Shown: one piece after another, positions 16,545 to 64,000 of the stretch | Layout of the letters: each line of letters begins with the position of its first letter | Position numbering within the stretch: position 1 is the first letter of the stretch | NCBI RefSeq assembly: GCF_018977255.1 | Contig: NW_024704742.1 | Coordinates: forward strand, 74,278,001-74,342,000 | DNA length: 64,000 nucleotides | Reading direction: 5' to 3' | Source: Callorhinchus milii | Lineage: Eukaryota | The notes under the pieces: generated by a model | Told to the model about the DNA's origin: nothing | Databases searched by the model: none | What the model saw: only the letters and a program-made list of their open reading frames with translations | Translations under genes and position numbers: made by a program

Positions 16545-17180
16545 ATATTATAAGCAAGCTAGCAGAATGGGCAGACAGATGGCAAGTAAATTTAACATAG
16601 GAAAATGCAAAGTAATTCACCTTGTCAGCAAAAAGAGGCCATCTACAGATGGGGAACATAAGAGGAATAGAGGAGCAAAAAAGATCTGGGGATTCAGATC
16701 CACAAATCTCTAAAAGTGTCTACACAAGTAGATAAGGCCAAAGAGATTTTGAGCTTTATATCCTGAGGGATAGAATCTAAAAGTGAGGAAATGGTGTTGT
16801 ATTTATATAAAACCTTCATTAGGCCACATTTTGAGTATAGTTTTCAATTCTGCTCTCCACACTATAGCTGTGATGGAAAGTGTACAGTGTATGTTTACGA
16901 GAATGATACCAGTTACTGCTATCAGGATAGATTGGATAGGTTAGGCCTTTTTTCACTAAAGATGAGACATTCAAGAGGGGACCTAACAGAGGTGTTTAAA
17001 ATTATTAAAAGTTTGTTCCACTTGTTGGTGATTCCATAACCAAGTATAAGATAGTGACTTGGGGATCTAAAAGAAAATTAGGAGGAACTACTTATGCAGA
17101 GGCTTGTGAGATTGTTGAACATGCTGCCTAAAGAATTGGTTGAATCAGATAGTGTAGATGTATTTAAAAGGAAGCTAGAC
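16545..17180 (+). mobile_element. CR1 LINE 3' fragment
   Basis: QMASKFNIGKCKVIH and LYKTFIRPHFEYSFQF...LGLFSLKMRHSRGDLTEVFKII. Confidence 0.85.
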
Positions 17181-35601: not shown

Positions 35602-35655
35602 ATGAGAACCATCATTCTAATTGTGTGCCTGATAGGCACAGCTCTCGCCAGCCCA
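35602..35655 (+). CDS. SPARCL1: SPARC-like 1, first coding exon (signal peptide; exon starts at 35586)
   Basis: tgcag acceptor, 16 nt of 5' UTR, ATG; MRTIILIVCLIGTALA-SP = 16-aa signal peptide plus 2 aa; gtgagt donor, phase 0. Confidence 0.9.
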
Positions 35656-36131: not shown

Positions 36132-36170
36132 ATCCGCAAAACTCGAGATGTGAGCAGTGAGAGTATAGAG
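36132..36170 (+). CDS. SPARCL1: SPARC-like 1, 39-nt mini-exon (IRKTRDVSSESIE)
   Basis: ttttcattttcag acceptor, gag|gtaatt donor, phase 0/0, ends in S-x-E motifs. Confidence 0.8.
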
Positions 36171-36617: not shown

Positions 36618-37121
36618 ACCCGGGGAGTGGGAGCAAGAACCTGGGGGGAGAGGGAGCAAGAACCTGGGGGGAGAGGGAACAGGTACCTGGAGGGAGAGAG
36701 GGAGTGGGTACTCGAGGGGCAGAGAGGGAGCGGGTACCAGGGGTGGGGGGTGGAGAGGGAGCGGGTACCCAGGGTGGGGGGAGTGGGTACCCGGCGGGGA
36801 GAGGGAGCGTACCTGGGGGGGAGAGAGAGGGAACGGATACCTGGGGGGAGAGGGAGCGGGTACCCGGGGGGGGGGAGAGAGAGGGAGCGGGTACCTGGGG
36901 AGAGAGGGAGCGAGTACTGGTTGGGGAGAGAGAGGGTGTGGGTACCCGGTGAGGGAGGAGAGGGTGGGTATCCGGTGGGAGGAGAGAGGGAACGGGTACC
37001 TGGGGGGTGGGGGAGAGGGAGTGAGTACCTGGAGGGGGAGAGAGTGTGGATACCCGGGGAGGGAGAGGGTGTGGGTACCCTGGGGGTGGGGGAGAGAGTG
37101 TGGGTACCCGGGGGGAGAGAG
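36618..37121. repeat. G-rich minisatellite (~22-28 nt units, core gggtacctgggggagagggag)
   Basis: About 20 imperfect tandem units with strong purine/G strand bias; source of several spurious overlapping ORFs. Confidence 0.9.
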
Positions 37122-37563
37122 AGTAGTCTGATACACAGAGAGAGAGGAGAACCTGCCTGGGAAGCAGATGTTTACACTTTTGAATACTGACATGTCACAG
37201 TCCAAAATCATAGTTTATTGTAGACAGAAGTGAAAGTTAAAGTATGTAACCACCCTTACACAAATAGGGATAAACCGGTTTTCATTATTTTTTCAGGGAG
37301 GAAATTCAGACAGTGATGAGGTAAGGAATTATTCAGTGTATTTGCGTGTGTTAAATTGCATGCAGATTGAATAATGAATACTGATAGTTCGACCGTCCCT
37401 CCCCTCGCCTCGGCTTCATGCTCCGCCACTGTCAAGCTCTCTGAGGCGCTAGCCTGCATGAGGGGCGTGATATAAACGCAAGTTGTTGTTGTTAATAATG
37501 CTGGTTCTTCATCTTGCTGCAGACAGTGAGGCACTTTGTAATGTTCTGTCTGTGTATTTACAG

Positions 37564-38322
37564 ATGAACCCCTTGGTTGATCAGCAGTACTTTCTCTATC
37601 CACGTAGATCCCATTCTCAAATCCCTTCACGGCCTAGATATTACCCAGAGGTTTTCCCTGCTGTACCTCCTGAATATTCCCCTTACCACAGCAAATCTTA
37701 TCAGCCTTTTCATTCCCAATACTTTGCAAGGTATCCTGATTACGCTCAACAGCCTTTCTATTCTGATTACAATGAACACCCAGGGTCTATGGTGTATGAC
37801 AGTTATCCGTACAAGTACCATCTCTTCCCTTTGATAAAGAGGATTCATAATCTGGTAGCATATCGTCTGGGGCACCATTCTACAGGCAACAGATTTGGGG
37901 CCATCCGTGAGAGTGCTCCACAGGTCACACCAAGCAGTATGGAAAACACTAGAACTGAGAAACCCATGGAGAATATCACTCCTAGAATACCAAGCCTGGA
38001 TGGTATCTTCATGTATAACAAACCAAATGAGGTCCCGCATGTTTCTGAGCACAATACTGAGCTTGCCCACTTCACTGGGAACTACCTTGAGCAATCGACA
38101 GATGAAATAACTGATGAAGAAGATCCATATGATGTTCTACGAAACTCTGACTCCATAGGGGTGGAACATTTTCGGTCATCCGGAATTGACATTAGTTATG
38201 AGCAAGTTGGCCACGATATTACCTCTTCAGAATCAGCAGATGAAACCTTGAATAATCAGGAATTGGAAAGTCAAGGAGTGTCTCAGGTAGATTACGTGGA
38301 TGATGACAATGAAACGAATAAG
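37564..38322 (+). CDS. SPARCL1: SPARC-like 1, Tyr/Pro/Gln-rich then acidic exon (253 aa)
   Basis: tttacag acceptor, open phase-0 frame of 759 nt, aag|gtattt donor (alternative cag|gtagat after 38286); lies between other exons of the gene in compatible phase. Inclusion in the mRNA is inferred. Confidence 0.75.
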
Positions 38323-39731: not shown

Positions 39732-39997
39732 ATTGGAAGGTTGTGTTTTCACACCTTTGGCTCTGGCTCACTGGGCTCAGGTGTAACAGTGCACCAGGTG
39801 TCAGTTTCCCACTCACTATTTCTGCTTCAGGCATTGTGTGTGAGAACTGGTTGAATTAAATTGTGGACTAGAGCTAAATGATGCTGTGGTTTTCAGCACC
39901 AGCAAAGAGCATCATGATTCTGGATGTATTCTGTGCTAATCTCACAAACTGTATATGGTTTCAGCATTGTGATGGGATGGTTTCTCTCTGTCTGTAG

Positions 39998-41230
39998 GCA
40001 CAGGACATCAGGACTGAGTCAGTACAAATGACTGACAGCGACAGCAGAGGTGATTCCAGTGAGAGCAACACTTCTGAATCCACTGGGGATGGAGATGAAA
40101 ACAGAGTGGAACAGAAAACTGATCTCAGAGTGGAGTCCACTGAGGATAACACAGCCGAGGACACTGAAGACAGTGAGGATGAAGATAGCAAAGCTGACCT
40201 GAGAAACAATGTCATTGATGACGACAAAACTGATTCCAATGAAGACTATGATAATGACGATGGCAAAGCTCACTTGGGATCGGAGTCCACTGAGGATAAC
40301 TCTGATGAATCCACTGAGGATGATGATAATAGCAAAGCTGACTTGATGGTTGATTCCAATGAGGATAACTCAGCTGAGTCCAATGAGGACAGTGATGAAG
40401 ATAGCGAAGCTGACCTGAGAATGCAATCCATTGAGGACAGCACAGCTGAGTCTACCAAGGACAGTGATGAAGATAGCGAAGCTGACCTGAGAGGGCAATC
40501 CATTGAGGATAGCATAGCTGAGTCCAATGATGACAGTGATGAAGATAGCGAAGCTGACCTGAAAGTGCAGTCCATTGAGGACCTCACAGCTGAGTCCAAT
40601 GATGACAGTGATGAAGATAGTGAAGCTAAACTGAGAGTGCAATCCACTGAGGACAGCACAGCTGAGTCCACTGAAGACAGTAATGAAGATAGCGAAGCTG
40701 ACCTGAGAGTGCAGTCCATTGAGGACCTCACAGCTGAATCCAATGATGGCAGTGATGAAGATAGCGAAGCAGACCTGAGAGTGCAATCCCCTGAGGACCT
40801 CACAGCTGAGTCCAATGATGACAGTAATGAAGATATCGAAGCTGATCTGAGAGTGCATTCCCCTGAGGACCTCACAGCTGAGTCAATGATGACAGTGATG
40901 AAGATAGCAAAGCTAACCTGAGAGTGCAGTCCATTGAGGACCTCACAGCTGAGTCCAATGATGGCAGTGATGAAGATAGCGAAGCTGATCTGAGAGTGCA
41001 ATCCCCTGAGGACCTCACAGCTGAGTTCAATGATGACAGTGATGAAGATAGCGAAGCTGACCAGAGAGCGAGGTTGATTGAAGACAACACATCTGAGTCC
41101 AGTGATGACAGTAATAACAACAGTGCTAAACAACCTGAACTGAATGCTGATTCCAGTGCTTTGAAGTATGATGAGTCTAATGAAGGTGACAGCAATGAGT
41201 CAAATTCTGCACCAAGAAGCCTACAGGAAA
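39998..41230 (+). CDS. SPARCL1: SPARC-like 1, large acidic Asp/Glu/Ser exon with RGD and 72-nt tandem repeat; 1-nt frameshift near 40884 in this sequence
   Basis: tctgtag acceptor (phase 0), a|gtaagt donor (phase 1, matching the next exon); ORFs 40028-40921 and 40924-41349 carry the same repeat in two frames. Confidence 0.85.
40112..41120 (+). repeat. Coding tandem repeat, 72 nt / 24 aa, ~14 units (SEADLRVQSIEDLTAESNDDSDED)
   Basis: agcgaagctgacctg recurs at 40403, 40475, 40547 etc. Confidence 0.92.
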
Positions 41231-41392: not shown

Positions 41393-41514
41393 ACCCATGT
41401 AATAACCATCCTTGCAAACGTGGAAAGGTCTGTGAGCTGGACAATGAAGGGAAGCCCATGTGTGTTTGCCAGGACACAAGCACCTGTCCTGCTAGTACCA
41501 CTGACTCTCAGCAC
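41393..41514 (+). CDS. SPARCL1: SPARC-like 1, follistatin-N (EGF-like) exon
   Basis: [41 protein letters not shown]; ag/gt boundaries, 122 nt. Confidence 0.95.
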
Positions 41515-42667: not shown

Positions 42668-42788
42668 GTGTGTGGCACAAATAACCGAACCTATGAAAGC
42701 TCTTGCCAATTCTTTGCCTCCAAGTGCATTCTTGAAGGAACAAAGAAGGGACACGGACTCCACCTGGACTACTTTGGGCCCTGCAAAG
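42668..42788 (+). CDS. SPARCL1: SPARC-like 1, Kazal exon
   Basis: [40 protein letters not shown]; 121 nt, ag/gt. Confidence 0.97.
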
Positions 42789-43652: not shown

Positions 43653-43789
43653 ACACAGCTCCATGCCAGGATAATGAATTGCTTCAGTTCCCTTTGCGGT
43701 TACGTAATTGGCTGAAGAATGTCCTAATGCAAATGTACGAGCGCGATCTTCAGATCCCTGGAATCCTTACTGAAAAACAGAGAAACAGA
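43653..43789 (+). CDS. SPARCL1: SPARC-like 1, EC domain exon (alpha-A helix)
   Basis: [46 protein letters not shown]; 137 nt, ag/gt. Confidence 0.95.
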
Positions 43790-44768: not shown

Positions 44769-44914
44769 GTTAAGAAAATTTATGACAGTGAGAAGAATCT
44801 TCATGCTGGTGACCACTTATTGGATCTGCCTTACAGTGATTTCAAGAATTATTATTCATTCATCTATCCAGTTCACTGGCAATTCAGACAGCTGGACCAG
44901 CATCCAACTGATGG
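44769..44914 (+). CDS. SPARCL1: SPARC-like 1, EC domain exon (into EF-hand 1)
   Basis: [49 protein letters not shown]; 146 nt, ag/gt. Confidence 0.95.
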
Positions 44915-45755
44915 GTAAGAAGGAACAAGCTTTATATTGACTTTCTTTTTCTGCTATTCCATTTTTAATTGGAAAACATAGGAAATTAAACTCAAGAGTA
45001 GGTCATTTGGTTCATCAAACCAGTTCTGCTATAAACCATTCTATGTACAACAAACAATCCATGACTTTCTGGGACAGTGATAGATTCTTATTCCTTTATA
45101 GGAAGAGATTTTCTTGGTCATAATCAGTTTTTTTTTTAATCCCAATTTTAAACCCATGTCTGCTTTAACTGATGGACTCACCAGGGGAAAAGTCAATTTG
45201 AGATTGGGTGGAGTTGCATCTGGGCAGGGTGGTAAAGGCGAGCATGCTAGACACATTTACGAAATGGCTTGAGCTTGATGGTCTAATGAGAAGATGGTAG
45301 GTTGGGGATTCATCAAAGACGAGTCTAATTAAACTGAAGGGCCATGTCTCACTTGTATATTACAAACTGAATTCAGTCCAATTACAATTTGGATGGCTAT
45401 TTTCCTTTGGTCAGTGTTGTTCATTAGTATTATGACTGCAACAATTTGCATTTCTATAGACCTCTGCACGTGGGGTAATGTTTTGGAGTACTTCATGATG
45501 TCTGACAACATCAGATGAGTAGTGAAGTCTCATCGTGATTGATAAATCCATCTATTTTACAACGCACTTATATATACAATATGCACACAAGATAGCATCT
45601 CAAAGCATTTTACAAGGCTAGTGTTGGTCTCTGAGCGGGGGTGGGGGATTTGAAAAAAANGTGCATATTTTTCAATGTGTACCAGGCACATGAATGACCA
45701 AAAATATTTGTTGTACTGTGCCATAGAACTCACAATGCTTTCATTCTCATTCCAG

Positions 45756-45904
45756 TTATCTCAGCCATTCTGAGCTGGCTCCCCTTCGTGCTCCATTAGT
45801 TCCTATAGAGCACTGCACCTCCCGATTTTTCACGCAGTGCAACACTGATGGTGACAGATTCCTCTCTTTGAGAGAATGGGCTCACTGCTTTGACATCAGT
45901 GAAG
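45756..45904 (+). CDS. SPARCL1: SPARC-like 1, EF-hand exon
   Basis: YLSHSELAPLRAPLVPIEHCTSRFFTQCNTDGDRFLSLREWAHCFDISE; 149 nt, ag/gt. Confidence 0.96.
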
Positions 45905-47252: not shown

Positions 47253-47281
47253 AAGACATTAATCCTGATCTTACCTTCTGA
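47253..47281 (+). CDS. SPARCL1: SPARC-like 1, last coding exon (EDINPDLTF*)
   Basis: tttctcttacag acceptor, phase 1; SPARCL1-type C-terminus; TGA followed by TGA TAA; AATAAA at 47529, 47731 and 47818. Confidence 0.92.
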
Positions 47282-49816
47282 TGATAAATTGGGACTCCAC
47301 AGACCATCCTCACTAAATTTCAATTCCTTGTACCATTTTTGCTGTGTAACCTACAATTGATGTACATTTAATATCATATCCCTTCATCAATGGCATTAGA
47401 GTAACGCTGAGTTATTTTTTTTCCCTGAAGAGATTCTTTTTGTTTTTGACATACATTTTCTAATATATAGAACATTTATCACAGACATTAAACAGTTTGT
47501 AATACATCTTTAATGATTGCCCCAGGCTAATAAACAAGGTAAACTATTCTTGTGACATCTAGAAAAATCTAATTAATTACTACAACATAAACGTACTGTT
47601 AAAAGGTCAGGGCACATCTGTTAAGTGCAGTAGCACTTCTTATTTGGCCAAGAAACATGCAATAGTAAGGGAGCTTGGCATTTCCCTCAGAAATGATGAA
47701 GATTTACTGATCTCTAGTCTTTCTATGTATAATAAAGGATTTAAAAACAATTATTTCAACAGCAAATCAGTCTCGGTTTATTTGTGTATCTAATTGTTAA
47801 ATGTATTTTTTTGTTTCAATAAACTATTTTAAAAAAGAAAGCTTTGTCGTAACTGATTAACTGTTTGGCCACAAACAAGTCATTGCACTTTACAGTTTAT
47901 CTTGCGAAGTGTTAAGACATTCTCCTGGCATTTAAAGCGCTCTACCAAATATAAGGATTATTTTTTTAAATTGAAAAGATTGGCTCAACTGCAATGGACA
48001 ATGATGATTAAACACCAGCAATAATTATCACACCACTCACAACATTTTACGCCCTACATCCTGCTGACAGCTACTTCCCTCCCTACATCCCAGTAGTTTG
48101 TTCTATATAAAAAAGGGCAGTGTGGGTTGCAGATACGAATATCACTGCTGTCATGATTAATACCAGTGAAATCAAAAAGATGGTCTATGGGTAATATTAT
48201 CTCTTAGGTCTGCATTTCAAATGTGCTATATTGTTGCTCTAAGAGAAAAATGAGTTTCAGCAGGTTGCACCAAGTTAACAGGAGTACAAAGTATAAAACC
48301 TGCCAAAATTAGTTGCAAACAAAATCTCAGACGAGTCCAAAAGGAAAACTGGTCTGGAAGATGAAAAATTGTGAAAACATAAACAAACAGAAAGTGGGAC
48401 ACTCAAAATCTTTTTGCACATTTTTGTGTTGACACAAGGTGGAAACTTGTTTATGCTTCCACATTATAAACAAAGGCATTCCATTTTATAATGTAGTGTG
48501 GACAGGCCAATCGCATTACTTATCCTGATTACCAAAACATACGCCACTCCTAAAATCCATGAAAATCAAAATGGGAGTGATTAATGATTACTGGGATAGT
48601 CATATACGATGCAAACAAGAACAAGTCCAGCTCAGATATAAAACAGCAAAGAGAGGATAAAAATCTTAACAGTTGAGAACTAAAGAAATATCAAACCATA
48701 AATATTTTGCTGTCCCTTTTGAGATTGTTACCCCTCCCCAATCCTCCGCCCACCCTCTAGAAATTCACAGGCCCTGTAAAATTTACACCTCTTCATCAGG
48801 TTTCCCTCAACCTTCTCTGTTTCAGTACAAATTGCTGCTCAGGTCAAGACACTTACCCTATGAGCAGGAATTTTGCCCTATTTGCCCCTATTTACAAATC
48901 CTAAGATCCCATTAACTTTATTTACAGCTTTGTCCTCCTGTCTTCTCACCTTCAAAGATTTATTTGCATTGACCATCAGGTGTCTCTGCTCATCTATTCC
49001 TTTTACAATTTTAATCATTTAGTACATCCAACTTATTCTTCCACCCAAATGTTACCTCACACTTTTGTGCATTAAATTTCATCTCCATCTTTCGACACAA
49101 TCTGCTAGTCCATCTATGTCTTCCTGAAGTTGCTTAGTTTTCTTTAGTAGCATGAATTCAGAATAATTTAAAAAAAGATTAAATATAACTACTACATTAA
49201 GTTCAATGATTCAGGAATGAGAATTGATGTGAACTCGAGGAGGACAAATACAAAGTGTTTGTGTAGCTCCTCATCACATTGACACTTTTCAAAGTATTTC
49301 AAAGGTAATTACTGTCAAGTGAAGTCACTGCTTGTGTAGGTAAGTTTGGCAGTCACAGAAATAGTCGCACACGGCAACATCCCATAAACAAGATAAATGA
49401 CCAATTAATTTGGATTACTGTAGGCCAAGACATCAGGAGAAACCCCTTTCTCTTTTCGAATAGTATATTACCAAGAACTAAACACTGGTTGCCAATAATA
49501 AAGAGGTTGCAAGTGATGCAGGAAGCAAATACATCTAACCCAACAAATCTAGCCAGGGTACAAAGTAAACAGCATTTCTGACATTTTTTAAACTTATAAA
49601 ATGTTAGCACAAAGTGCGCACAGTTTAATATTTACTTTTCTTTTGCCCATACAGTTTAGTGTAATCAGATCATTTCAAGGAGCAGCTGTTGACCTCGTAT
49701 AACACTGAAGGCCTCATTAGTATTCATTTTAATGGTATCTAAGATATTTTTTAGTTGACAGCGTGGACTTGGTAAATCTGCAGAGGATGTGCTCTGCCCC
49801 TCACAAAACAACAAGG

Positions 49817-50220
49817 TGTCAGCTTGGCTCAGTTGGGAGTGCTGTTGCCTCCGAGTCAGAAGGTTGGGGATTCAATCCTCAATTTGGGACCTTGAACTCA
49901 ACAGTGTAAGCTAAACTCCAATACTGTGATAGAGCATTGTTGGAGGTGCCGTCACTTGGAAGAGTTTTTAAGCTTTGTCCTGTCTACCTATTTAGGTGGA
50001 CATTAAAGATATCACAGCACTATTCAAAAAGATGATTTATCCTAGTGTCCAAGACAACAATTCCCCAGAAAAAAATGGTCATTCACTTCATGGTTGTTTG
50101 TAGGACATTATTGTGCAAAAATTGACTGCCACTTTCCCCTACAAATATATTCACTCAGTCAATCCTGTGAAGCTTTGAGACATTTCAGTAAGGCGTATAA
50201 AATGCAAGGATTATTATTAA
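49817..50220 (+). mobile_element. Deu-domain SINE, near full length
   Basis: ggctcagttgggagtgctgttgcctccgagtcagaaggttggggattcaatcc head, aggtggacattaaagat core, TTA tail. Confidence 0.65.
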
Positions 50221-50689
50221 CAAACAACAAAAAACATTTCAATGAAATAATGTAGCATGAGCATCTCATAAAAGACACAGAGTTATGCAGGAGCAAGATG
50301 TTAGGAATGAGGTGAGGTAAATGTAAACAGGATGAATAAATATTACAGACAGCATCATAGAATTTGCAGCATCTGTTCACCAAAACACAGCCACCTAACA
50401 GAGGACAAAACAGGATTATCAGCAAAAATAGAATAGTCATAAAAACATTGAAGAAACTGGCAACCCATCTAAACCAAAAGTTTTTACTATTTTGTGAAAT
50501 TTACCAAACAGTGAAGTAACTGTTCAGTTTTTATTTGCTTATGGCTTCTGGGTGTAGAGAACACATATTTGCTTAAAAAGCCGAGGTCAAATCAAAATGT
50601 GTGCAAATGAAATACTTTTTTGCTTGGATACAGACTACAGAAATACATATTCTTTTGAACTGTCAACAGTGTCTAGGCCTTCAAACATC

Positions 50690-51337
50690 CATTCTTCCTC
50701 ATCCACGGTCTCACACCACAGGCCGCCAAAACTGTCATACATGCACACACTGAGGCTTGACTATGCAAGCTCCTTGCTTGTCAGCCTCTCCAACTCCTGC
50801 CTCCACAGGCTGCAGATCATCCAGAACTCTGCAGCCCATGTCCTCTCCCACACCAGGGTCCGTGACCCTATCACCCCCATCCTTGCCCAACTCCACTGGC
50901 TTCCCATCACACAGAGGATACAGTTGAAGATCCTGGTTCTCACCTTCAAAGCCCTCCATGGTCTTGCTCCCCCCTACCTCTCTGACCGCCTAACCTCCTA
51001 ACATCCTGCCCACTCCCTCCGCTCAGCGAGCTCCGGCCTGCTTCACGTCCCCCACCTCACCCGCCCCACCATTGGCGAGCCGGCCTTCTGCCACTCTGCC
51101 CCCACCCTCTGGAACTCCACACCGCAGTCCCTCTACCCCCTCTCTTGCCTCCTTCAAGATCCATCTAAAGACCCTCCTCTTTGACCATGCTTTTGATCTC
51201 TGATTCCCCGCCCTGCCCTCCACCCTACCCAAACCTGACCCCCAGCTCGGGTCCGAAACTCTGTCTGTCCAGCGCCTTGGGAAGTCCTCCCGACATGAAA
51301 GGCGCTATAGAAATGTAATTTTGTTTTTGTTGTTGTT
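50690..51337 (+). mobile_element. L2 LINE 3' end with (TTG)n tail
   Basis: RLDYASSLLVSL...LQIIQNSAAHVL...LHWLPITQRIQLKILVLTFKALHGLAPPYL. Confidence 0.9.
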
Positions 51338-51654
51338 CGTACACTGGAGATCAACCACTATACCATTTTACAAAGCAATGCTTTGCACAGGAGCTTCTTC
51401 CAACAACCGTTGCTTTTATGTTGTGCCTTTTATGTCGGGCGGTGTCCCAAGGTGCTTTCCTTTCATTTCTATTCAGAAACGGTTTTGTCATTTATGATTC
51501 TCCCACTATCCGTATTCTTTAATTGTGTGAACAGGAAGAACATTTGGTAGTATTGATTACATGAGGACACAACACACTGATTGATAATAATAATGAACAT
51601 TACTGCTCAATCTAGCAAGGTAGAAATAATGGCACCAGAGATTTGTGCTCATCA

Positions 51655-52385
51655 CAGCAACTAGCATTGACATAGCACCCTCCATGCAGGGAGTGTCTCA
51701 GAGCACTTAACAGTGATGGAGCAGGACTCCGAGCCGGGGGGGGAGAGGGAGGTGACAGTAAACAAGTCAAAAAGGTTTTCAGGCGGGGCTTGACAAGGGG
51801 AAGGGGGAAAGGCAGAGGGACTGTGTTCCAAAGGGAGAGTGTTCCAAAGTTTTGGGACGTAGTGGCTGAAAGCGCGACCTCCAATGGTGGGTCAGAGGAT
51901 GCGAGGGTCAAGCAGGAGGCTGGTGCCAATCGAGCGGAGGCACCGGGTGATGGATTGGGGAGTGAGGAGGTCAGAGAAGTAGGGAGGTGCCAGAGAGTGA
52001 ATGGATTTGAACAGAGTGTGAGGATCTTCAAGTCGATCCGTTCGGTGATGGGGAACCAGTGAAGCCTGGCCAGAACTGGTGAGATGTGGGTACGGAGTTT
52101 GGTCCGGGTCAGTATGCGGGCGGCAGAGCTTTGAATGAGTTGGATTGTTTGAATAGTGGAGCTGGGGAGACTGGCGAGTAGAGCGTTTGAGTAATCCAGG
52201 CGGGAGGTGACAAACACATGAAGAAGGGTTTCGGCTGCTTTGGGGTAAAGTAGTTGGAGGTGGTAGAAGCCGGTCCTAGTCAGGGACCAGATGTGGGGGA
52301 AGAAGGTCAGCTGGGGGTCGAATCGGACGCCTAGTTTGCGCACTGATTCAGTGAGGCTGAGGAGAGCCCAGGGAGGTTGAGGAAT
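51655..52385 (-). mobile_element. L2 LINE 3' fragment
   Basis: HVFVTSRLDYSNALLASLPSSTIQTIQLIQSSAARILTRTK...; same subfamily as 8345-9000. Confidence 0.9.
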
Positions 52386-52947
52386 CACAATGTACCAAAT
52401 ATTGAAGCAGATATTATTCTAATAGGGAGTTAAAAAGAGATGGTTTACTTTGGCCCATCTTTCTTGCGACCTAAATGTGCCCAAATGTTTTGGTTTCTTG
52501 CAATTTTTGATTTAACTGTGGAAAAAAGATCAGCACATTTGATGAGATACAGAGAATGCTTTCACTGTGCACAACGAAAACATTGTTGGTTATAGCCAAT
52601 CTTCTCCCAACAACTAATGCTGTATTAGGCAAGCCGTAGCAAAGTTCAAGCTAACAATGCCTACTCACATCATGATGTTTCACTTTCCTATTTAATGTAC
52701 TTTAACCCGATTTTTCTGCCTCTGTGCATTTAAAATTATGTGTTTAATCTACTTCTGTGTGATTATTTGTACAATTAAAACACTATTCATGTAGAAAATT
52801 AATGATATACTTATGGATATCGTACTAACTCATAACTCATTTTCAGCTAAAAATAGTATTGGTTATAGTCCCTCAGCCCTGAAAGACCACATGTTATTGA
52901 TGGAATGGCCATGAATGTAGGCTGCAGCATGTGGCATCATAATATAA

Positions 52948-53244
52948 ATAATAATAATCCTTGCATTTAACATAGCGCTTTGCACCTCTTCGAGACGTCT
53001 CAAAGCTTCACAGAATATACTGTAAAGTGAATTGACTGTATATTTGTGGCAAAACGCGGCAGACAATTGCACACAGCAGTGTCCCACAAACAGTCGTAGA
53101 TTGAAGTGACCAATTTATTATTGTTTTTTTTCTTGAGGGATTGTGTGGAATAAGGAAATTTGTCCAACATTTTGACCCGCCAGGAATCAAACCCAGGTCA
53201 CTCGCTTCTGAGACAAGTGCTCTAACTACTGAGCTACAGGACTC
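52948..53244 (-). mobile_element. tRNA-derived SINE
   Basis: Tail to head (ctgagctacaggactc) of the same family. Confidence 0.85.
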
Positions 53245-56149
53245 TACTTAATGATGGCTGCACTGCATGTAAATAATGAGTTTTAAACTCTTGAAATATA
53301 CAGCCTCTGAAATATTCCAACTCAGTCCCAAGATGCATACACACTTTTGTATCTAGACTAAAAGTGTTTGTTATGGCACTGTACTATAAAACAAGCTTTG
53401 GAATCTCATTCCTGTGGTTACTCTAGCATGGACAGGTATTTGTGTGGCTCAGACAGATGCTCAGCCAGCAGCTGTCTAAAGCCTACAAACATGTTGATGT
53501 GAGAAGATGTTTTAGTGGCAAATTGAACCTCATCAGATCGTATGTTAACCCTTTGTGCATTGAACGTTTGAACTGATCACCCTTGCACTACACAGGATAA
53601 TCACATAATAAATTAACTGATAGAATAAACCACAATACATCAGAAAAAGTCTATAAAATTAACTTTTTTTCCTTAAAAATCAAACAAAGCTTGCACAGTA
53701 ATTTTTTTCTGGTTATGGAGGTAGACAGTCCAGTCCCTTTGTTTGTTTGTCTTTCTCATTAGCAGAATTTAATTAAAGTTGGGCCATTCTCGACAACTTT
53801 CCTCCCTCTGTAAAGCCTGTCTGAATCAGAATACTTGTTGAGGAAGGACTGTTCTATCCATGCTGGGTGGTTACTTCTCTGCCTGGGGAGGAAGCAAGCA
53901 AGTTCTGTTTGGGGCTGAGCAGGTTGAAAAGTAACATGCCTGGTTACTGGACTAATGAAATTGAGTCAATCCTTTGTGGTGGTTTCAGCAGTCTGGTACC
54001 TGAACCAGGTAATGTTGATGACAGACCACGCAGGAGGACTTGGGAGCAGCAGACCAGTCAATGGGGCTGAAATTCTTCCTTGTTGGTAACCCATCAAGCA
54101 AAAGCCTAACAGGTAGGGTGATCCTAGCTGGACTAACAGTAGGAAGCTTGCCAGTGTTCCCAATGGCAAGCTGTGAGGATTTAGCTGGTTGAACTCCCAA
54201 CAGTATCCAAGTAAATACACAGTAGTTCCCGAGACTTAGCTGTTGCCAATCTGCACCAAACTCTCCAGGATTAGGTAAGCATGTTTCGTCTCTTCAATGT
54301 GAGAGTGTGCATTCTATTGCAGACAAAAGGAAATTTCCATACATTTATAGAGCTCTCAGTTCAGTTTGATACTCTTGAGCATGATAATGGGTTTTTGCAG
54401 ATGTCAGACATCCAACTGATCAAAAAAAACTTGCATTGGTATACCAGGTAACACTGAACCCAACAGTAATCTCATACATCCATAACGTGTCACTGCATGT
54501 AAGCTGGTGTGGTATACAACTCCCAAAGTACTCTTGCATCCACTGTTATGTTCCCCACTTAAGGACTTCTGCCCCATATCACCTCCTCAGTTCAACCACC
54601 AATTTCCTCATGATTTTTGTTCCGACAAATACCTAGACTGTTAATTTATCATCTTCCCAACTGAGATTTTCCACAACAGGAATACCAGCAACATGTGTCA
54701 AAGGGTCAAATCTCATGGGGAAACTGGGACGGCTTTGGACCATAAAGCAAGTTTGCTAGGATTTGTTGCCATCGCCTTAATTACATTTACGAGGCATTCA
54801 GCGTTTCCAATTGTGGTGTAAAACAGAATTTGGAAGAGACAGCGCAAACTGTTAAGTAGATTTATCAGCTGTATATTTAGACTGGAACATGAGTCGTGTC
54901 TTCTGAAACATTTGCAAAAAACATTCAATACCCATTTCAATGTTTGTTTTACTCAAATAAAAATGTGTTCTCTTCAAAGGGAACAAAGTTTGGAAAATTA
55001 TATTGCAAATGCTGTACCATGCATAGTCAACCAATCTAATTGTAAGGTCACTGTAAGAAAACACTATAGCAAAAGGGTAAAATGGACTAGATCTACCCTT
55101 AAAAGGTGGCTTTCATAGTGTTACATGTTAATTCGGGCACGTTATTTTAATTATAAGAAGTAAATTGATCATTTGTATAGTTTCTTAAATTATAGAAATA
55201 ACAAGATTTATTTTCATATTCTAATTCTGATTTTTTTTGCCAAGTCAGTGGCTCTGTGAGAATTTACTATTTTAAATTGTTCAAATGTTTAATCTCTTAA
55301 ATGGGATTCAGTCTTGTTGCTTCTGCATTTGGCTATTAGAATAAATGATTGTTTAAACATTGATAGTATCATAATAGTAAAGTACCACTGAAGAACACCA
55401 GTCTCAAATTATTTGAACTTGAAAGTTCTGGCCTTACCCGCATTCAGCAGCACAATTTCAAAAAGGCTTGTCCATTAAGCGACACACCTCAGGGTTCTAC
55501 TTGGAACACTTTAATACATTTATTGACATATCTGAAGACTTTGGGATTTTGCACTATGCACTTCTAAATGAGTTCCCATCTTAGGTCTTCAACCAGAACT
55601 ATGTTCATGGCTATTTAACTTCCCCTCAAAGCCCCATTGCGGATTTGATTGTTCATCCACTCATTTTCCATTACCTGAGGGCTGATCTTTCTGACACTTT
55701 TCTCTCTTCATGTTAAGATTACATTTATTATCTTACTGATAAATTCATATTTTTATTTCCTCAGATCACACAGCTTTAATGCACACAAACCATTCCTTGC
55801 ATAATGCAATCCTGAACTAATTAACTAATTAATTAAATGTTAATCTCAGCAGTGCTCTTTGATGTGGCTGCTTTCAACTCTTCAATGATACAATCTCTTC
55901 ACTAGCCACTATATTTTAATTGATCTCATTAACCCCTGCCCTTTTCAACTTTGATTGTGTCCTATACTATACTCTTCACCAAGATTTCTTCTACATATCA
56001 CTAAAATACTGTAAATGAGAACTTCATCATAACATTCCACTCTCAAAAGTACAGATTAGTAAACAACATCAAGTCATTAAACCCTCCATTAACAGGGGAA
56101 CCTACATCAAATAGTCACAGCATTTATCCAATCTAACTTACATAATAGT

Positions 56150-56295
56150 ATAATAATAATCTTTACATTTGATATAGCACCTTATCACATCATTGAGACG
56201 TTGCCAAGCGCTTCACAGAATATTGTAAAGTGAATTGACTGTACCTTTTGTGGGCGAAACGCAGCAGCCAATTGCGCACAGCAGTGAACCACAAA
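56150..56295 (-). mobile_element. SINE 3' half
   Basis: (TAA)n ...atttgatatagcacc...gcagccaattgcgcacagcagtg. Confidence 0.75.
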
Positions 56296-59200
56296 TGTGA
56301 TAACCTAATGCACATTAGGTTACCAGCAACCGGGCAAACATTGAAAAGGACAAAACCTTTGGATTAGTTACATATCAGCCAGATCCAAATCCTGTGATTA
56401 TCTGGCTTTCAGATGGATTTTTTTAAATTTCAAATTAAAATCAGAACAAACAAAACCATTTGCAGAGGCCAATTAACAATAAATCCACAACAAATATCAC
56501 AAATTAACAGGGAATCAAAAGCCTTGCTCAATTTGCATGATCAGCTACATGGTATTGGGGAGAACAAAACATTGATCCCAATCCAAAAACAAACATTTGG
56601 AATACAGCCCAGCTCACCCAGATGCACAGTGTTCAAAGACAGAAACTGATTTACTGAAAGTTTCTACAGAAAAAATATTGGATAGATTGTCACATCCTCC
56701 TGATGTGAAAGGCGCTATATAATTGTATTGTAACTTGCTGACAAATTAGTTCTTCATTTTCAATAGACATGCAAACTGACCCAATCAAATACTGTAAGAT
56801 CGAAGTCAAGCTCAAACCACAACCAAATTTATACGTATAACAAAGTTTCCTAGTTTACATCAACAAAACATTTAACAAAGTTTAAGTTCAAAAGGCACCA
56901 CAAATGTTGAATTGTTGGTTGCATGTAGGTAGTTAACTCGATGTTTCTAAGAACAACTATCTGACAGAATACTATTACAAAGTTTGTGTTAGGTTACACG
57001 TTGTCATATTGAACATCAAAATACAAAATTGCATTTGGAATCAACAATAGATCTATTTTGAAACAATCCACTTCAGTCTACCAGGCCAGTCAAATAGCAC
57101 TTGTAAACTTGAAAAAATTAGTCTATACCTTACCTGCCCTAAAGAGTATTCCCTCAATATAATTTGAAAGTCAGTGATTTCCGAATTGTTGCAAGTTATG
57201 GAAAACTACAATCAGATGCGTTTCCACAGAAATTACGCTGCATCTCCTCCCAGTCCAGACACTAATAATAGTGGAATATGTTTCAACATGTCATTCATTT
57301 TTATGTCCTTTTATCTAAATCTGCAGAGTATTACAGGTAAGTCTGATTCCATCCTTACCCATCGCACAAAATCTGATGAATTTAAGATGGAATCAGGAAG
57401 ACTAACTGGCAAATGTTTTCTTTCTCATTCCATAAGTGCTGAAACCATTTAAGTATCCTTGTTATTACTGGCCAGGCTGACATCAGATAACTGAGAATGT
57501 TAATAAGAGCAAAGAGCAAGTTCGACTCAGTAACAGGTGGGTGTCCTTATGCCCTCAGCCAATGACCCATTCATCATAACTGATTTCTAAAGACCACAGT
57601 GCACTGCAGATTACTCCAAATTTTCCTCAATGCCAGCATTGGAAAATCATTTACTGCATCTAATGATGGATTTACTGTTTGCATTATAATTAGTGGCAAT
57701 TTTGGGCTCAACTATTCAAGCATGTTATTCAATTTTCTGCTTTCATTTGTAGCACAACAGTATTTCAAACTTTTAACCAGCAAATTACCTTCCCCCAAAA
57801 AAACTGTTGACTGATTTTTCTACTTAGGACCATCCTACATGTTAGGTTCAATGGGTTGAGAACATTAAGTTCTCATTATCTAAAGGGAAATAGAAAAATA
57901 TTTTGCAGAGCAGAGATATTCAGCACATTGCATTAGTTTAACTTGGTACCAATTACAACCTAGTCTAACTGGTTCATTTATTCTGAATTTCATTGCTTCA
58001 TGAGTAATAAGAGTGGTATAAATATAAATAAGGCTAGCACAGTTGGTCAGGACACAAGTGTTATATTCCAAACCTATTGAGGCAGGTTGTGTCTATGCAG
58101 AATATCGATTCTAGATAGTTCAAATGTTTACATCTTAAATTTCCTGATTATGAACTTTATTTTCAACACAATTAAACATTCACTTTATAGAAAAAATAAC
58201 ATTTAGTGTACTTTCTCATTTTATTCCAATTTGGCATAAAAGCCAATAAATTACATAAATCATACAGGATCTATCATCATCAATACAGCCAAGAGTAGCA
58301 ATTCTTTGCTTGAAGTATTGCGCGAGATTAATAATTCACACTAAATTAGGTTGAAATACCCATCATCCTAAACTTTTCAAATATTGTGTAGTTATTAACT
58401 TTGCAACACTGTCTTTTGTTGAATTTCTGAGAGATGCAACATAGCTTTTAAATAAAGTAAAGGCACACTAATTCCTCTACTAGTGATAGACTGGTATAAA
58501 TATGAATAAAGGCTGGCACAGACAGTCAGCACATAAGTCAGCATGTAATTCCAAATCTATTGAGGTGCTTTGTGCCCACGGTTCCAAACCAAAGGCACCA
58601 CTGCCCAATATTGATGATATAGGCTTCAATAGGAGAAATGTGCTGCACTTTGTGCTGGTTTAACCCGATCTTACATTATAGATATGCTAGGTTATCTAAC
58701 CAATATCAGAACTAGGGAAACACATATGGGTTATAATAGTTTGCTGCATTGATAATTTGTACCAGTCTAAAACTAGCCTATATGAATGCAGTCTAGAAAT
58801 GTCTAGATGATGACATTTATTCTGGGTCTGAAATCTATCCACCTTCCAAGAGTTCACAAGTCATTCTCCAGCAAGAAACTTATGTAAAACAGTTTACCAT
58901 AGGGAGGCTTGACAGAAACAGTCATAATAACCTCCTACAAAATGCATCCAATCTTCCATTAAAGCAACAAAAAACATTATGATTGGATACTTCTTAGAAC
59001 TTAAATTACATCAGCACAACTGAGAACTGCTTTTCAATTCAGACATCTCCTGTCTGCTCAATGTACCAAGGGGAATGATTCCAACTTTTTGTTTACCTAT
59101 TGAACTGAATAAACTAACTTTGGCTTGTTAAAAATTGAATCCATTAAAAAGTAAGTATTCCTGGTAAGAAAAATGAAATGGGTAAAACATAACAAATATT

Positions 59201-59344
59201 TCAAATTCTCCTTTCAAAATAAACATTCCCAGTTATCGTAATGTGCTTGTAGATTATGCATTTTGCAATAAAAGTAGCATTGATCCTTTTTCCACAACAC
59301 GATCACTATTTATCTATTCTGCTTGTGGCGCAACTGCATTACAA

Positions 59345-59422
59345 TTAGTTGAGGTCATCCTCATCATCATCTTCTTCATCGTCATCTTGGTCAACGGAAT
59401 CCAAGTCATCTTCGTCTTCAAC
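59345..59422 (-). CDS. USO1: General vesicular transport factor p115, last exon (acidic tail)
   Basis: ttatacag acceptor; VEDEDDLDSVDQDDDEEDDDEDDLN then TAA; p115 acidic C-terminus. Candidate minus-strand AATAAA at 58220-58225 and 58156-58161. Confidence 0.9.
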   Translation of the reverse strand, partial: VEDEDDLDSVDQDDDEEDDDEDDLN

Positions 59423-60518
59423 CTGTATAAAGGAAAGATATTCTTTTGTCACTGTATTTAAAATGCATGAGGCTGACGTAACTTGCACTTATTTATAGCT
59501 GTACATGCAATGGGAAGATCACCAGTGCCATGTACGAGTAATGGTACAATTTCACAACTTTTAGGTACAGACACAATGTTTTACCTGGTTGAAGTGTGCA
59601 TTTAGGAGTCTCTAATGTCTAGCTTCAGACAAACTGCAATTTTGTTCTCCAGCTACAGACAATCAAGATATTTCTTTCTGCTCTCCACCCAACTGAGCGA
59701 TTGCAAATTACAGATCTAACAATTTAAAATTATGTGAGTTCTCAGCAAATTCAGCAGAGAGGCTTTAGCACTAAAAATTTCTGTACACATTAGACAGCCA
59801 GCAATATAATCGAACACTGTCAGTAGCAAAGTTGGTAACAGCTTTGTAACATATTGTTCTAAATACAAGGTGAGATCTTCTTCCTCTAAATTCAGTTCAA
59901 AACTGCTACCATTCTCATACTCAGACTAACAAAACCGAGCTGCAAGATAGCAACAAGATCTCATTGTATATATACTTAAAAGTTGTGAAATTACACACGG
60001 GGTGAGTTACTCCCCACACTGTACAGGTCAATCATGGCTCAGCAATTTCTCAACCCTCAATCATGTTCGGAACTGGATTTTTTTTTTTTAGACAAGTACC
60101 TCAAAAGTAGGGATTAATGAAAGGGGACCAGAATTAGAGAGAAAAAACGAAGAGTGAGAAAAATACAAAGTCATCATACTTTATAGAAAATTCTTTGAGA
60201 CGTTCTCCCAATGGGAAATGTGCTACACCAAACGTGAGGATTATTATTAGTTCAGTCACTACATATTTCAGCTATTCATTGAAGAGTGAATAGCACCCCA
60301 CTAATTAACGTACATCACTGAAATCATAAATAACAAACTAATGTATTTTGAAAGAAGCTCACATTAAGTGTGTCTCATAAGATAGCATATAGTTTATGAG
60401 ATGATATGGAATCAGCCTGAACTTGAATTATGTTCATGTTTCAGTCAATTAACCCAACATATAGCCTGTACTGGGCTCATTAGTGTGAATGTGGTGCAGT
60501 CTGACAAAAAATTTGGGT

Positions 60519-60817
60519 GGAGTCCTGTAGCTCAGTGGTTAGAGCACTTGCCTCGCAAGCGAGAGACCTGGGTTTGATTCCCAGCAGGGCGAAACCTTGG
60601 GCAAGCTTCCTTACGCCACACACCTGATAATAATCCCTCAAGAAAAAAACCCAATAATAAATTGGTCACTTCAGTCCATGACTGTTTGTGGGACACTGCT
60701 GTGCGCAATTGGCTGCTGCCTTTCACTCACAAATACACAGTCAATTCATTTTACAATATATTCTGTGAAGCGCTTTGAGGAGTCCAGAAGACAAATGCAA
60801 GTATTATTATTATTATT
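60519..60817 (+). mobile_element. tRNA-derived SINE, full-length example
   Basis: gagtcctgtagctcagtggttagagcacttgcctcgcaagcgagagacctgggtttgattcccagc: A box, anticodon-like stem-loop (CGC), B box; TTA tail. Confidence 0.88.
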
Positions 60818-60991
60818 AAATTTAGCTTTCATTATAAGACAGATCAATCTGCATCCAAACAGTCAAGTATAAGTATAAGAATTCATAGACAATGTCTGAC
60901 CAACTGGCTGGAAATGTTAACCTCTTCTTTTCAGATGCGGATGGACCTGCTATAGATATGCAGATTTTCCTCTTTTTGGCTGGTATCATAC

Positions 60992-61207
60992 CTGTTCTCC
61001 AAGTTCTTTGAGTTTGTTTTTCAGTCCAAAGATTTTCTGGTCTTGGTCAGCCAGAAGCACAAGCAGATCATCCTGCTCTTTCTTTGAGTCTATGACATCT
61101 TGCTGCAGCTTGCTGTTTTCAGTTTGAAGGATGGCAACTGTACTGTTTGTTGACGCAAGCTGTTGATCCAGGGCACTCTTCTCTTCAGTCATGGCCTTCG
61201 TTTGGTC
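60992..61207 (-). CDS. USO1: p115, penultimate exon (C-terminal coiled coil)
   Basis: DQTKAMTEEKSALDQQLASTNSTVAILQTENSKLQQDVIDSKKEQDDLLVLLADQDQKIFGLKNKLKELGEQ; 216 nt, ag/gt; KKEQDDLLVLLADQDQK is diagnostic of p115. Confidence 0.96.
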
Positions 61208-62164
61208 CTGTATTTACATACAAGAAACAACATACAATATTATAGCACCTTATTTACTTCAAAATGTCTCAAAATGCCTCACAGTAATTCCTCTCAAATT
61301 CTATCTGCATCAGCAAGATCCCCAAATAACATGAAGTGAATGACCAGTTGATTTGAGGGAATGTTGAAAAGGGCACAGGAAGAAACTCCCTTCTCAAAAT
61401 AATATAATGAACTCACAGATCATTGTTTAACTTCTCATCCAAAATATGCAAGCTCCAACAATGCAGCATCTAACCCTATCCTAACCTAGACTGTCAATCT
61501 AGACAAGTCTTGAAGTGAGGCTTGTACCCAGAACAAAAAGTCTGCATTTGCAACAGCCTCATTAAACTCATAGCAAAGAAATGGGTGAAAACTCGATTGG
61601 AATGATGTCTTTCAACAACAAATTAAAGATTTGCTTATTAATACTAATTATTGCAGTCGAATATCATGCCCAAATATATTTATTATAACTCCACCGTATT
61701 TGCCCAAACTGATACAGACTGCTAACATTTTAGAAAGCATTTGATCACGCAAACAACTTCAGACAAGGGAATTAATTGATAAACTGATGTGTAATATACC
61801 ATTAAAACAGAAGGCAGATCGTGCAGCATGTATTGAGACAACAAGACTCAGTTTACTGAAAAATGAACCACAGAGCTACGTGGGTGTGTAACCCAAGCTT
61901 GAGTAATGGCTGTCCAATTAACTGGGGTTTAATTTCCACAAACAGTCCATTCTGGACCATGTTCATACCACATATTGACAAATGTCAGTTGAGCAGCATT
62001 TGTGAAAATAACATTATACCTCTGTAGATTACTACAGGCAAAGGCTGCAATCGTCCATCCGCCCTGGTGCCCGGACTGCCTATATCCTGCCCTGTTTAGC
62101 AAATCAGAGCTCACACTGAGCAATCACACAGTAAGGGTGCAATATACTGTATATACACAGTACA

Positions 62165-62552
62165 ATTGGGATTGTTCTCCTTGGAACAGAGAAGGTTAAC
62201 GGGAGATTTAATAGAGATGTTCAAAACAGAGAGAAACTGTTTCCACTGGTGGGTGGGTCAGTAACCAGAGGCCATAGATTAAGATAGTTGTCAAAAGAAC
62301 CAGAGGGGAGGTGAGAAGAAATGTTTTCACACAGTGAGTTGTTTGAATCTGGAATGCACTGCCTAAAACGGTGGGGGAAGCAAATTCGATAACAACTTTC
62401 AAGAGGGAAGTGGATAGATATTTGGGGAGGACAAATTTGCAAAGCTATGGGGAGAAAGCAGGAAGTGGGATTCATTTGGATAGTTCTTTCAAGAGTCAGC
62501 ACGGGCGTGATGGGCCGAATGGTCTTCTTCTGCGCGCTACAATTCTATGAAT
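62165..62552 (+). mobile_element. CR1 LINE 3' end
   Basis: accagaggccatagattaag...ttttcacacagtgagttg..tctggaatgcactgcct...gatgggccgaatggtcttcttctg..attctatga CR1 tail. Confidence 0.85.
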
Positions 62553-62606
62553 TAATGCAGGCATAAAGCTGCAGAGATCACTTGATGAAATGGCGAATTT
62601 TAAAAC

Positions 62607-62696
62607 CTTTAACTTTCGATTTTCATCCATCAATGCTGATAGTCTGCTTTCCAGCTGTGCGATGTTGCTATCACCGTCTCCTTGTGCAGCCTCCGG
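62607..62696 (-). CDS. USO1: p115, third-last exon (coiled coil)
   Basis: Pyrimidine tract plus aag acceptor, PEAAQGDGDSNIAQLESRLSALMDENRKLK, aag|gtttta donor; 90 nt, phase 0/0. Confidence 0.75.
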
Positions 62697-64000
62697 CTTC
62701 AAAGTGAAAAGAAATGATTCAGGGAAGTCAGCCCACTGATTTGGTTACATTAAACTTAATATAAGAATTTTAATCTTAAAATTGTTCTTTCCTTGATCAG
62801 TCTAATATTTAGAAATGTAGATCATCGCAAATTAACAAGTTGCATTTATAAAGCATCTTATTGAAGAACATATAAAACCACTTGGTAAATATAGTTCCTT
62901 CTTTGCCAAGCAAGGAACAGGGTGATTAAAAGCTAGAGACCAAAGTCACAGACAAAGATAGGTTTTCAGAAATTTAGACAAAGATCAGAGATCAAGCATG
63001 GGAGGGGCAGCAGAGATGGGACGTAGGGCTGGAAAAAGGGTATGGTGAGGAGCGATCTCAAACCAGGGAAATCAACAGCGTCAAGACCTTCTTTTTCTCA
63101 CAAAATAGTAGTCATATGGCTTTTCACAAAAGATGTCTGAAAAATAGTGGGGCTATGTAGACTAGCAACTGAAAGAACAAGTCTGAGTATATTGTTTAAC
63201 TGATTTGACTTTCAGCTGAATCACGTCATAGTCAACCCAGATTATGTTTCTGAGTAACCTCACATCTACTGTTGTGCTGTTTTCTACACTTTCAAAAATA
63301 TAGAATCTTAAGCTCTTACCAATTCAAATATATTGTAAAAGACCGAGAGTGGCTTGTATAAGCAGACAGCTATCCAATACTGTGTACGTGTCTCAGCAGG
63401 TAAAAAGCAAGAATGTGACAGCATCGCTACCAAGATGCTTTTAGTCATTTCTAAAACAAAACTAAATGACCACTGTCATTCCTAAAATGGAAAATTTGGT
63501 TTCTTCTTTGGTGCATCGAAGTTCATTAAAGAAAACAAAGCAATTACTGGACATTGCATCTGTAAAGGGTTAGACTACCACAGTAATTTCTTGTAGGACT
63601 CTTACAATATTTTCAAACACTGCAAATAAACTGAATCAAGCGAATATTTCTAAACATTAATCCACATTATAGAAACTATCATTGTGCTGTTCAATGCCTT
63701 GTTTCAGTGGAGTTTATGGAATACATTGTAATAGAAGGTGATGGAACAAAAATGTGGCAATCACAAATTGGAACTCATTGTATTAATAATGGCTTCTGTT
63801 AGGTATAAAATTGGGAAATTCACTGTACAATACATCTTTTTTAAAAAAAGGATAAAATCTTGAAAGCTGGCAATGGCAATTTTGTCTGGCTTTTCAGGTC
63901 TTTTCTTGGTTGAAAAACACAGAAAATTAAAATGTCAACTACAAACACAATCCAGTCATATTTTCCACCTTCATGTCTCTTTAACAAAAGTCAATGCAAC

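Follow-up and report, generated by a model that had tools for sequence, protein, structure and literature searches.

An RGDS motif in the acidic exon of elephant-shark Sparc-L is probably an incidental tripeptide

The 64-kb stretch of Callorhinchus milii (elephant shark) DNA analysed here (to be referred to as the window) carries a gene that is, as judged from its sequence, the known and already published Sparc-L gene of this species, and not a SIBLING. The large acidic exon of this gene encodes an RGDS motif. Its RGD is probably incidental, a tripeptide that happens to occur within an acidic phosphoprotein already known, and an integrin function for it is doubtful. The RGD appears to be ordinary because most of the shark relatives do not have it and because its rate across the family is not above the chance level.

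Identity and structure of the gene

The Sparc-L gene has 11 coding exons, located between 35602 and 47281 on the forward strand, and all 10 introns have AG/GT ends. Introns 1–4 are in phase 0, and introns 5–10 are in phases 1, 0, 1, 0, 2 and 1, where the phases from intron 5 onward hold once one missing base is counted in exon 5 (see below). Exon 1 (35602–35655) encodes the signal peptide and is followed by a phase-0 intron. Exon 2 (36132–36170, phase 0) encodes 13 residues with S-x-E sites, and exon 3 (37297–37320, phase 0) encodes 8 residues. The residues modelled for these three exons are those of the published Sparc-L-Cm protein. Exon 4 (37564–38322, phase 0) encodes 253 residues, with a Tyr/Pro/Gln-rich first half and an acidic second half, and is covered by RNA-like contigs. 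Exon 5 (39998–41230) encodes about 411 residues of acidic Ser/Asp/Glu sequence, contains the RGD, and ends in phase 1 after the missing base is counted. The gene model and Pfam locate the follistatin N-terminal (FOLN) part in exon 6 (41393–41514), the Kazal part in exon 7 (42668–42788), and the extracellular calcium-binding (EC) domain in exons 8 (43653–43789), 9 (44769–44914) and 10 (45756–45904), the last of which we take to be the EF-hand region. In the model, exon 11 (47253–47281) contains the stop codon. A G/A-rich degenerate tandem array with periods of 22–26 is found in intron 2 (36622–37152), and a single N is located at position 45660 in intron 9.

The identity of the gene is based on a database match, a published protein of 937 residues, the Pfam domains and the position in a tree. 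A search of longer proteins with exon 4 finds the UniRef row P0001 (A0A4W3J2H3) from Callorhinchus milii at 100%. This protein and the window model are identical at 896 of 898 residues, with the difference located only at the one-base gap. This protein of 937 residues appears under the name Sparc-L-Cm in the supplement of Leurs et al. 2022 (PMC9122587), with the same N-terminus, 24-residue repeat and RGD, from which the window assembly differs by the one-base gap in one repeat. The Pfam families FOLN, Kazal_1/2 and SPARC_Ca_bdg score above the cut-offs at the C-terminus (residues 667–884 of P0001). In a tree of the C-terminal domains (a quick tree with a midpoint root and no SPARC outgroup), the window gene branches as the sister of the five shark Sparc-L rows (SH-aLRT 99). 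Membership of the Sparc-L/SPARCL1 group is seen in the C-terminal follistatin/Kazal and EC domains, in the signal peptide and acidic S-x-E N-domain, and in the grouping with the other chondrichthyan proteins. Synteny of Sparc-L with Pkd2 has been reported (PMC3964593).

No second sparc-L or scpp-like copy was found in the rest of the 64-kb window, by tblastn with five proteins and blastn with five exons, which agrees with the reported absence of SCPP genes at this locus (PMC3964593). A simple exon scan found no other clear gene at 1–35500 and 47400–64000.

The RGDS motif and its setting

The RGDS codons (AGA GGT GAT TCC) are located at bases 40046–40057 of the forward strand, in frame with the exon opening at 39998, which is preceded by a TAG acceptor. 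They encode residues 309–312 of Sparc-L, in the context TDSDS-RGD-SSESN, and the RGD at residue 309 is the only one in the 937-residue model. The sequence-only reading had placed the motif in a Ser/Asp-rich acidic exon, upstream of a frameshift, and both observations are confirmed. Exon 5 is 21% Asp, 17% Ser and 15% Glu (36% Asp plus Glu), and the motif precedes the one-base gap at 40883–40884. The Sparc-L model has 38 S-x-E sites, 31 of them in the acidic exon with the tandem repeats, and cysteine is absent from the N-domain. Ser312, directly after the RGD, opens one of the S-x-E sites, the Fam20C consensus. No MQxD BMP1-type site, a feature of the DMP1/DSPP subgroup located upstream of the RGD, was found in P0001.

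The RGD region is predicted, by charge and hydropathy, to be on the disordered side. Only the N-domain scores as disordered, and the C-terminus consists of folded-family domains. An AlphaFold2 model from a 6-row alignment has a mean pLDDT of 34 and fails to resolve even the end of the protein that is known to fold, and it is not counted as evidence for disorder. There are nine RGD triplets in the six frames of the window, of which eight are outside exons and one, that of Sparc-L, is exonic. Five of the nine read RGDL in similar contexts (at 16974, 22873, 30500 and 35334 on the forward strand, and 10903 on the reverse strand), and are presumably remnants of one LINE family.

A 72-bp tandem repeat, encoding a 24-residue acidic motif, occupies 40119–41112 on the forward strand (TRF counts 13.8 copies when the degenerate ends are included). 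This repeat of elephant-shark Sparc-L has been described, with a published count of 11 (PMC9122587). One unit, at 40832–40902, is 71 bp in length, and the gap that it contains puts a stop after residue 599 of the window model. The protein P0001 and the published Sparc-L read through this site without a frameshift. As assessed from protein records only, the gap is most likely an error or an allele of the assembly.

Contigs from two sequencing runs of one study, neither on record as RNA but guessed to be so, bear on the splicing of exon 5. The X1 contig (794 nt, depth 9.4) aligns with 37949–38320 and has 422 letters remaining, while the X2 contig (295 nt, depth 4.3) aligns with 38114–38320 and has 88 letters remaining. 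Both runs have zero depth in the two intron bins at 39798–39993, and depths of 9.21 and 3.86, respectively, in the bin at 39994–40091. These depths are equal to those predicted if the contigs resume at the exon-5 acceptor (9.4 × 96/98 and 4.3 × 88/98), from which exon 4 appears to be spliced to exon 5 across the RGD codons. The X6 contig covers 39741–40180 with a single difference, at 40141, and the RGD codons are thus unchanged in this sample. That difference is a silent T>C change, and a T>C change at 40107 in the X1 contig converts Val to Ala by codon reading, each observed in a single contig. Run X10, from organism B, gave no contigs at 80% likeness, a result that counts neither for nor against the motif.

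The composition of the exon sets the chance expectation for such a motif. In 20,000 shuffles of exon 5, an RGD is found in 7.3% and an RGDS in 1.3%. Shuffles of the whole N-domain contain an RGD in 12–13%, giving a chance P of about 0.12. The RGD is therefore not clearly in excess over chance in such an acidic tract, to judge from these shuffles. In addition, 17 of the 407 codon triplets of exon 5 are two substitutions away from RGD, which suggests that such motifs are easily gained and lost.

Distribution of the RGD among relatives

The homologue set is the best 120 of 377 matches. Besides the query, it contains 5 shark rows and 1 bird row, and the remaining 113 are ray-finned fishes or rows with no name. 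Among these best 120 matches, an N-domain RGD is found in 6 of the 119 homologues (two of the six rows being from one species), and for all 120 rows together shuffling leads one to expect about 8. As controls, the five remaining permutations of R, G and D are present in 1, 1, 8, 8 and 1 of these 119 N-domains, and KGD is found in 3 of them. The rows are related to each other, with 114 of the 119 not from cartilaginous fishes, so these counts are not independent draws. The seven carriers are scattered over the tree, where they need 6 changes; shuffling of the labels gives 6.9, with a value this low in 47 of 500 shuffles. Outside the sharks, 5 of 114 rows carry an RGD, and its places are unrelated.

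Only one of the five shark rows, that of Heptranchias perlo, has an N-domain RGD. None of the seven elasmobranch Sparc-L N-domains in the alignment of Leurs et al. 2022 has one, as judged by eye and with one row partial (PMC9122587). The five shark rows (Heptranchias P0002, Heterodontus P0003, Cetorhinus P0026, and Scyliorhinus P0039 and P0114) and the seven Leurs rows, with two species shared, give one carrier among 10 elasmobranch species. Within the elasmobranch orthologues and the wider homologue set, conservation of the RGD does not hold, as it is absent from 9 of the 10 elasmobranch species and its frequency among the 119 homologues is that of chance. The SPARCL1 rows of human and mouse in the Leurs alignment (PMC9122587) show no RGD, in agreement with the earlier statement that mammalian SPARCL1 is not known as an RGD protein.

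A text search of the PMC9122587 supplement returned 10 places with RGD, although a motif interrupted by a gap, a line end or a truncated run would escape it. Skate Scpp ends in RGD in two of three species (Raja and Okamejei; Amblyraja has RDD). Within the EC domain, an RGD is present in each of the two skate Sparc-L rows where the window reads AGD, and the row Sparc-L2-Ps has an RGDS in the N-domain (PMC9122587 supplement).

Searches with exon 4 found one match among 618 candidates of the longer proteins, from C. milii and no other chimaera, where coverage is lacking. Among 1.84 billion representatives, exon 4 matched the C. milii protein alone, and the first 134 residues of exon 5 had no match among 1093 candidates, both of which reflect coverage rather than absence.

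The RGDS of Heptranchias is located at residues 336–339 of P0002. It falls in the same part of the acidic sequence, 10–16 residues beyond the place of the elephant-shark motif by ungapped anchors. About 0.03 RGDs are expected per 40-residue stretch over the five sharks, a test that was picked after the Heptranchias case had been seen. For at least two carriers among the six chondrichthyan rows, anywhere in the N-domain, the shuffle P is 0.09. The equivalence of the two sites depends on the alignment. BLASTP superposes the two RGDS motifs by means of a 13-residue gap. With a shared ESN anchor, the two RGDs are at −5 and +5, on opposite sides of it. With MAFFT and the exon-start anchor, the elephant-shark RGD is opposite SND, SND, SND, SQE and SQE, and is 16 residues before the Heptranchias site. 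At the latter, the remaining four sharks have VAD or VAV. The ungapped best match for the first 22 residues of exon 5 is at the exon start in two of the five sharks (both with SND) and elsewhere in three, and is weak. The Heptranchias motif is a mild hint, from these alignments, of an old or recurrent site.

The second half of exon 4 (about 37930–38322 in the window), continuing into exon 5, aligns with an internal region of shark Sparc-L. The BLASTP scores are 37.7 bits for Heterodontus and 32.7 bits for Cetorhinus, against shuffled maxima of 23.5 and 22.7. The score for Heptranchias, 28.1, equals the shuffled maximum, and the match is weak or absent in the two catsharks. Elephant-shark Sparc-L is said to lack the conserved internal region (PMC9122587), and a diverged remnant of it may be present here.

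Comparison with SIBLINGs and with other Sparc-L proteins

The elasmobranch Sparc-L orthologues share with the elephant-shark protein the signal peptide, Tyr-rich part, acidic part, and follistatin plus EC end, the last with 61–69% identity. However, they are less Ser/Asp-rich and have other repeats, and their RGD, in 1 of 10 species, is at a different anchored position. Elephant-shark Sparc-L is the most acidic of those examined in PMC9122587, which cites Kawasaki et al. 2017 for this acidity. Osteichthyan SPARCL1 (hevin) is a co-orthologue with the same domain order and a C-terminal part that is 60–65% identical, but its N-domain cannot be aligned to the elephant-shark one.

The likeness to SIBLINGs (SPP1, IBSP, DMP1, DSPP and MEPE) is in the 5′ exons. 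Sparc-L also has an exon for the signal peptide, then short exons in phase 0 that contain S-x-E sites, and a large acidic exon with an RGD tripeptide. Its RGD lies ahead of tandem phosphorylation repeats, much like the layout of DPP (PMC2803795). As SCPPs derive from Sparc-L, this likeness reflects shared ancestry of the 5′ exons. Unlike SIBLINGs, which have no follistatin or EC domain and are flexible throughout their length, Sparc-L retains the folded follistatin plus EC end. Its introns have non-zero phases from intron 5 (the coding introns of SIBLINGs are in phase 0), there is no tandem SCPP neighbor in the window, and the RGD is not conserved among orthologues. SIBLINGs belong to a tandem cluster next to SPARCL1, and this gene is Sparc-L itself. 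Unlike DMP1 and DSPP, it does not have the MQxDD BMP1 cleavage motif (a feature described in PMC2803795). The view of the RGD as a mark of SIBLING-like adhesion finds no support in this comparison, with the motif absent from nine of ten elasmobranchs and present in 6 of 119 homologues, as by chance.

The RGD is patchy in true SIBLINGs as well. It is missing in 16 of 35 mammalian sequences of DPP, and the DSPP of platypus and of shrew has gained RGDs at positions not used before (PMC2803795). Patchiness is thus no proof of neutrality.

Probable working of the protein and alternative explanations

By its sequence, Sparc-L is a secreted protein. Its signal peptide is followed by a part rich in Tyr, Pro and Gln, then by a long acidic part that is disordered, and the follistatin plus EC end is folded. 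The acidic part is probably phosphorylated by Fam20C at the S-x-E sites and would bind calcium in dental-type mineralization (PMC9122587, PMC6117938). Expression of sparc-L in ameloblasts has been shown only in catshark and ray (PMC6117938). The RGD probably arose in the elephant-shark lineage, within a fast-evolving Ser/Asp/Gly-rich tract, and probably has no selected integrin function. Phosphorylation of Ser146 in osteopontin reduces RGD-mediated binding to αVβ3 (review PMC12192592), and by analogy Ser312, if phosphorylated, would further damp binding to the RGD. The sequence-only reading had proposed that this protein combines mineral binding with integrin adhesion. Mineral binding by the acidic domain is the published view (PMC9122587) and stands, whereas the adhesion part is weakened by the distribution of the RGD.

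Several observations do not sit easily with an incidental tripeptide. The motif is in a secreted, disordered and probably exposed region, and the homologue counts come from related rows, mostly outside the cartilaginous fishes. It is decidedly unlikely, though consistent with this setting, that holocephalans, which are reported to be without scpp/SIBLING genes, gained an integrin-binding RGDS in Sparc-L as a lineage-specific site, converging on DMP1, DSPP and osteopontin. One protein would then join phospho-acidic mineral binding with the anchoring of cells, and phosphorylation of the next Ser by Fam20C could serve as a switch. The apparent transcription and splicing of the exon, the unchanged codons in the X6 sample, the extreme acidity of this Sparc-L (PMC9122587), the reported lack of SCPP genes in C. 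milii (PMC3964593), and the novel RGD positions in platypus and shrew DSPP (PMC2803795) are in its favor. On the other hand, the N-domain would contain an RGD by chance with a probability of 0.12, the rate across the family is at the chance level, and there is no BMP1-type site to release a fragment. An RGDS in the same acidic stretch of Heptranchias, where about 0.03 is expected, could instead stem from an ancestral site that has undergone turnover. In that case, the Sparc-L of early cartilaginous fishes would have had an RGDS near the beginning of the acidic exon. Callorhinchus and Heptranchias would have retained it, in place or shifted, and the other sharks and the skates would have lost it, so that it would be a remnant of the adhesion motif which later became characteristic of SIBLINGs. 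Among the six chondrichthyan rows, the first two branches are those of the carriers, and both read RGDS within the short distance noted above, where BLASTP aligns one with the other. However, the ESN anchor puts them on opposite sides, the other sharks have unrelated residues opposite both sites, and the shuffle P for two or more carriers, 0.09, was obtained before five further negative species from the Leurs supplement were added, all of which makes an ancestral origin very improbable.

That the motif is not translated, either because the frameshift disrupts the gene or because splicing omits the exon, is scarcely credible. The stop introduced by the one-base gap would favor such an explanation, but the database and published proteins read through it, the 10 introns have proper ends and phases that fit with one base counted, RNA-like contigs appear to continue from exon 4 into exon 5, and the RGD is upstream of the gap regardless. 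An incidental tripeptide in a translated acidic phosphoprotein remains the preferred explanation.

Implications for mineral-matrix proteins

The RGD of Sparc-L receives no remark in the main text of PMC9122587, where 'rgd' occurs in one reference title only, or in the available text of PMC3964593 and PMC6117938. Titles and the opening parts of abstracts gave no paper on it, and the subscription literature, for example Kawasaki et al. 2017, may mention it.

If the motif is incidental, as we favor, it is of little consequence, as gene, repeat and sequence have all been published already. A bolder possibility, unlikely on the present comparisons, is that chimaeras use Sparc-L as a SIBLING equivalent, with a phospho-switchable RGDS placed before an expanded acidic repeat, as in DPP, and with the Heptranchias motif marking an old adhesion site in the Sparc-L of cartilaginous fishes. 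If this were true, the integrin motif of SIBLINGs would predate or parallel the SCPP duplications. A functional RGD would bear on how the mineral-matrix proteins of vertebrates acquired integrin binding, and Sparc-L would be a candidate stand-in for osteopontin, DMP1 and DSPP in a lineage that mineralizes its tooth plates without SCPP genes.
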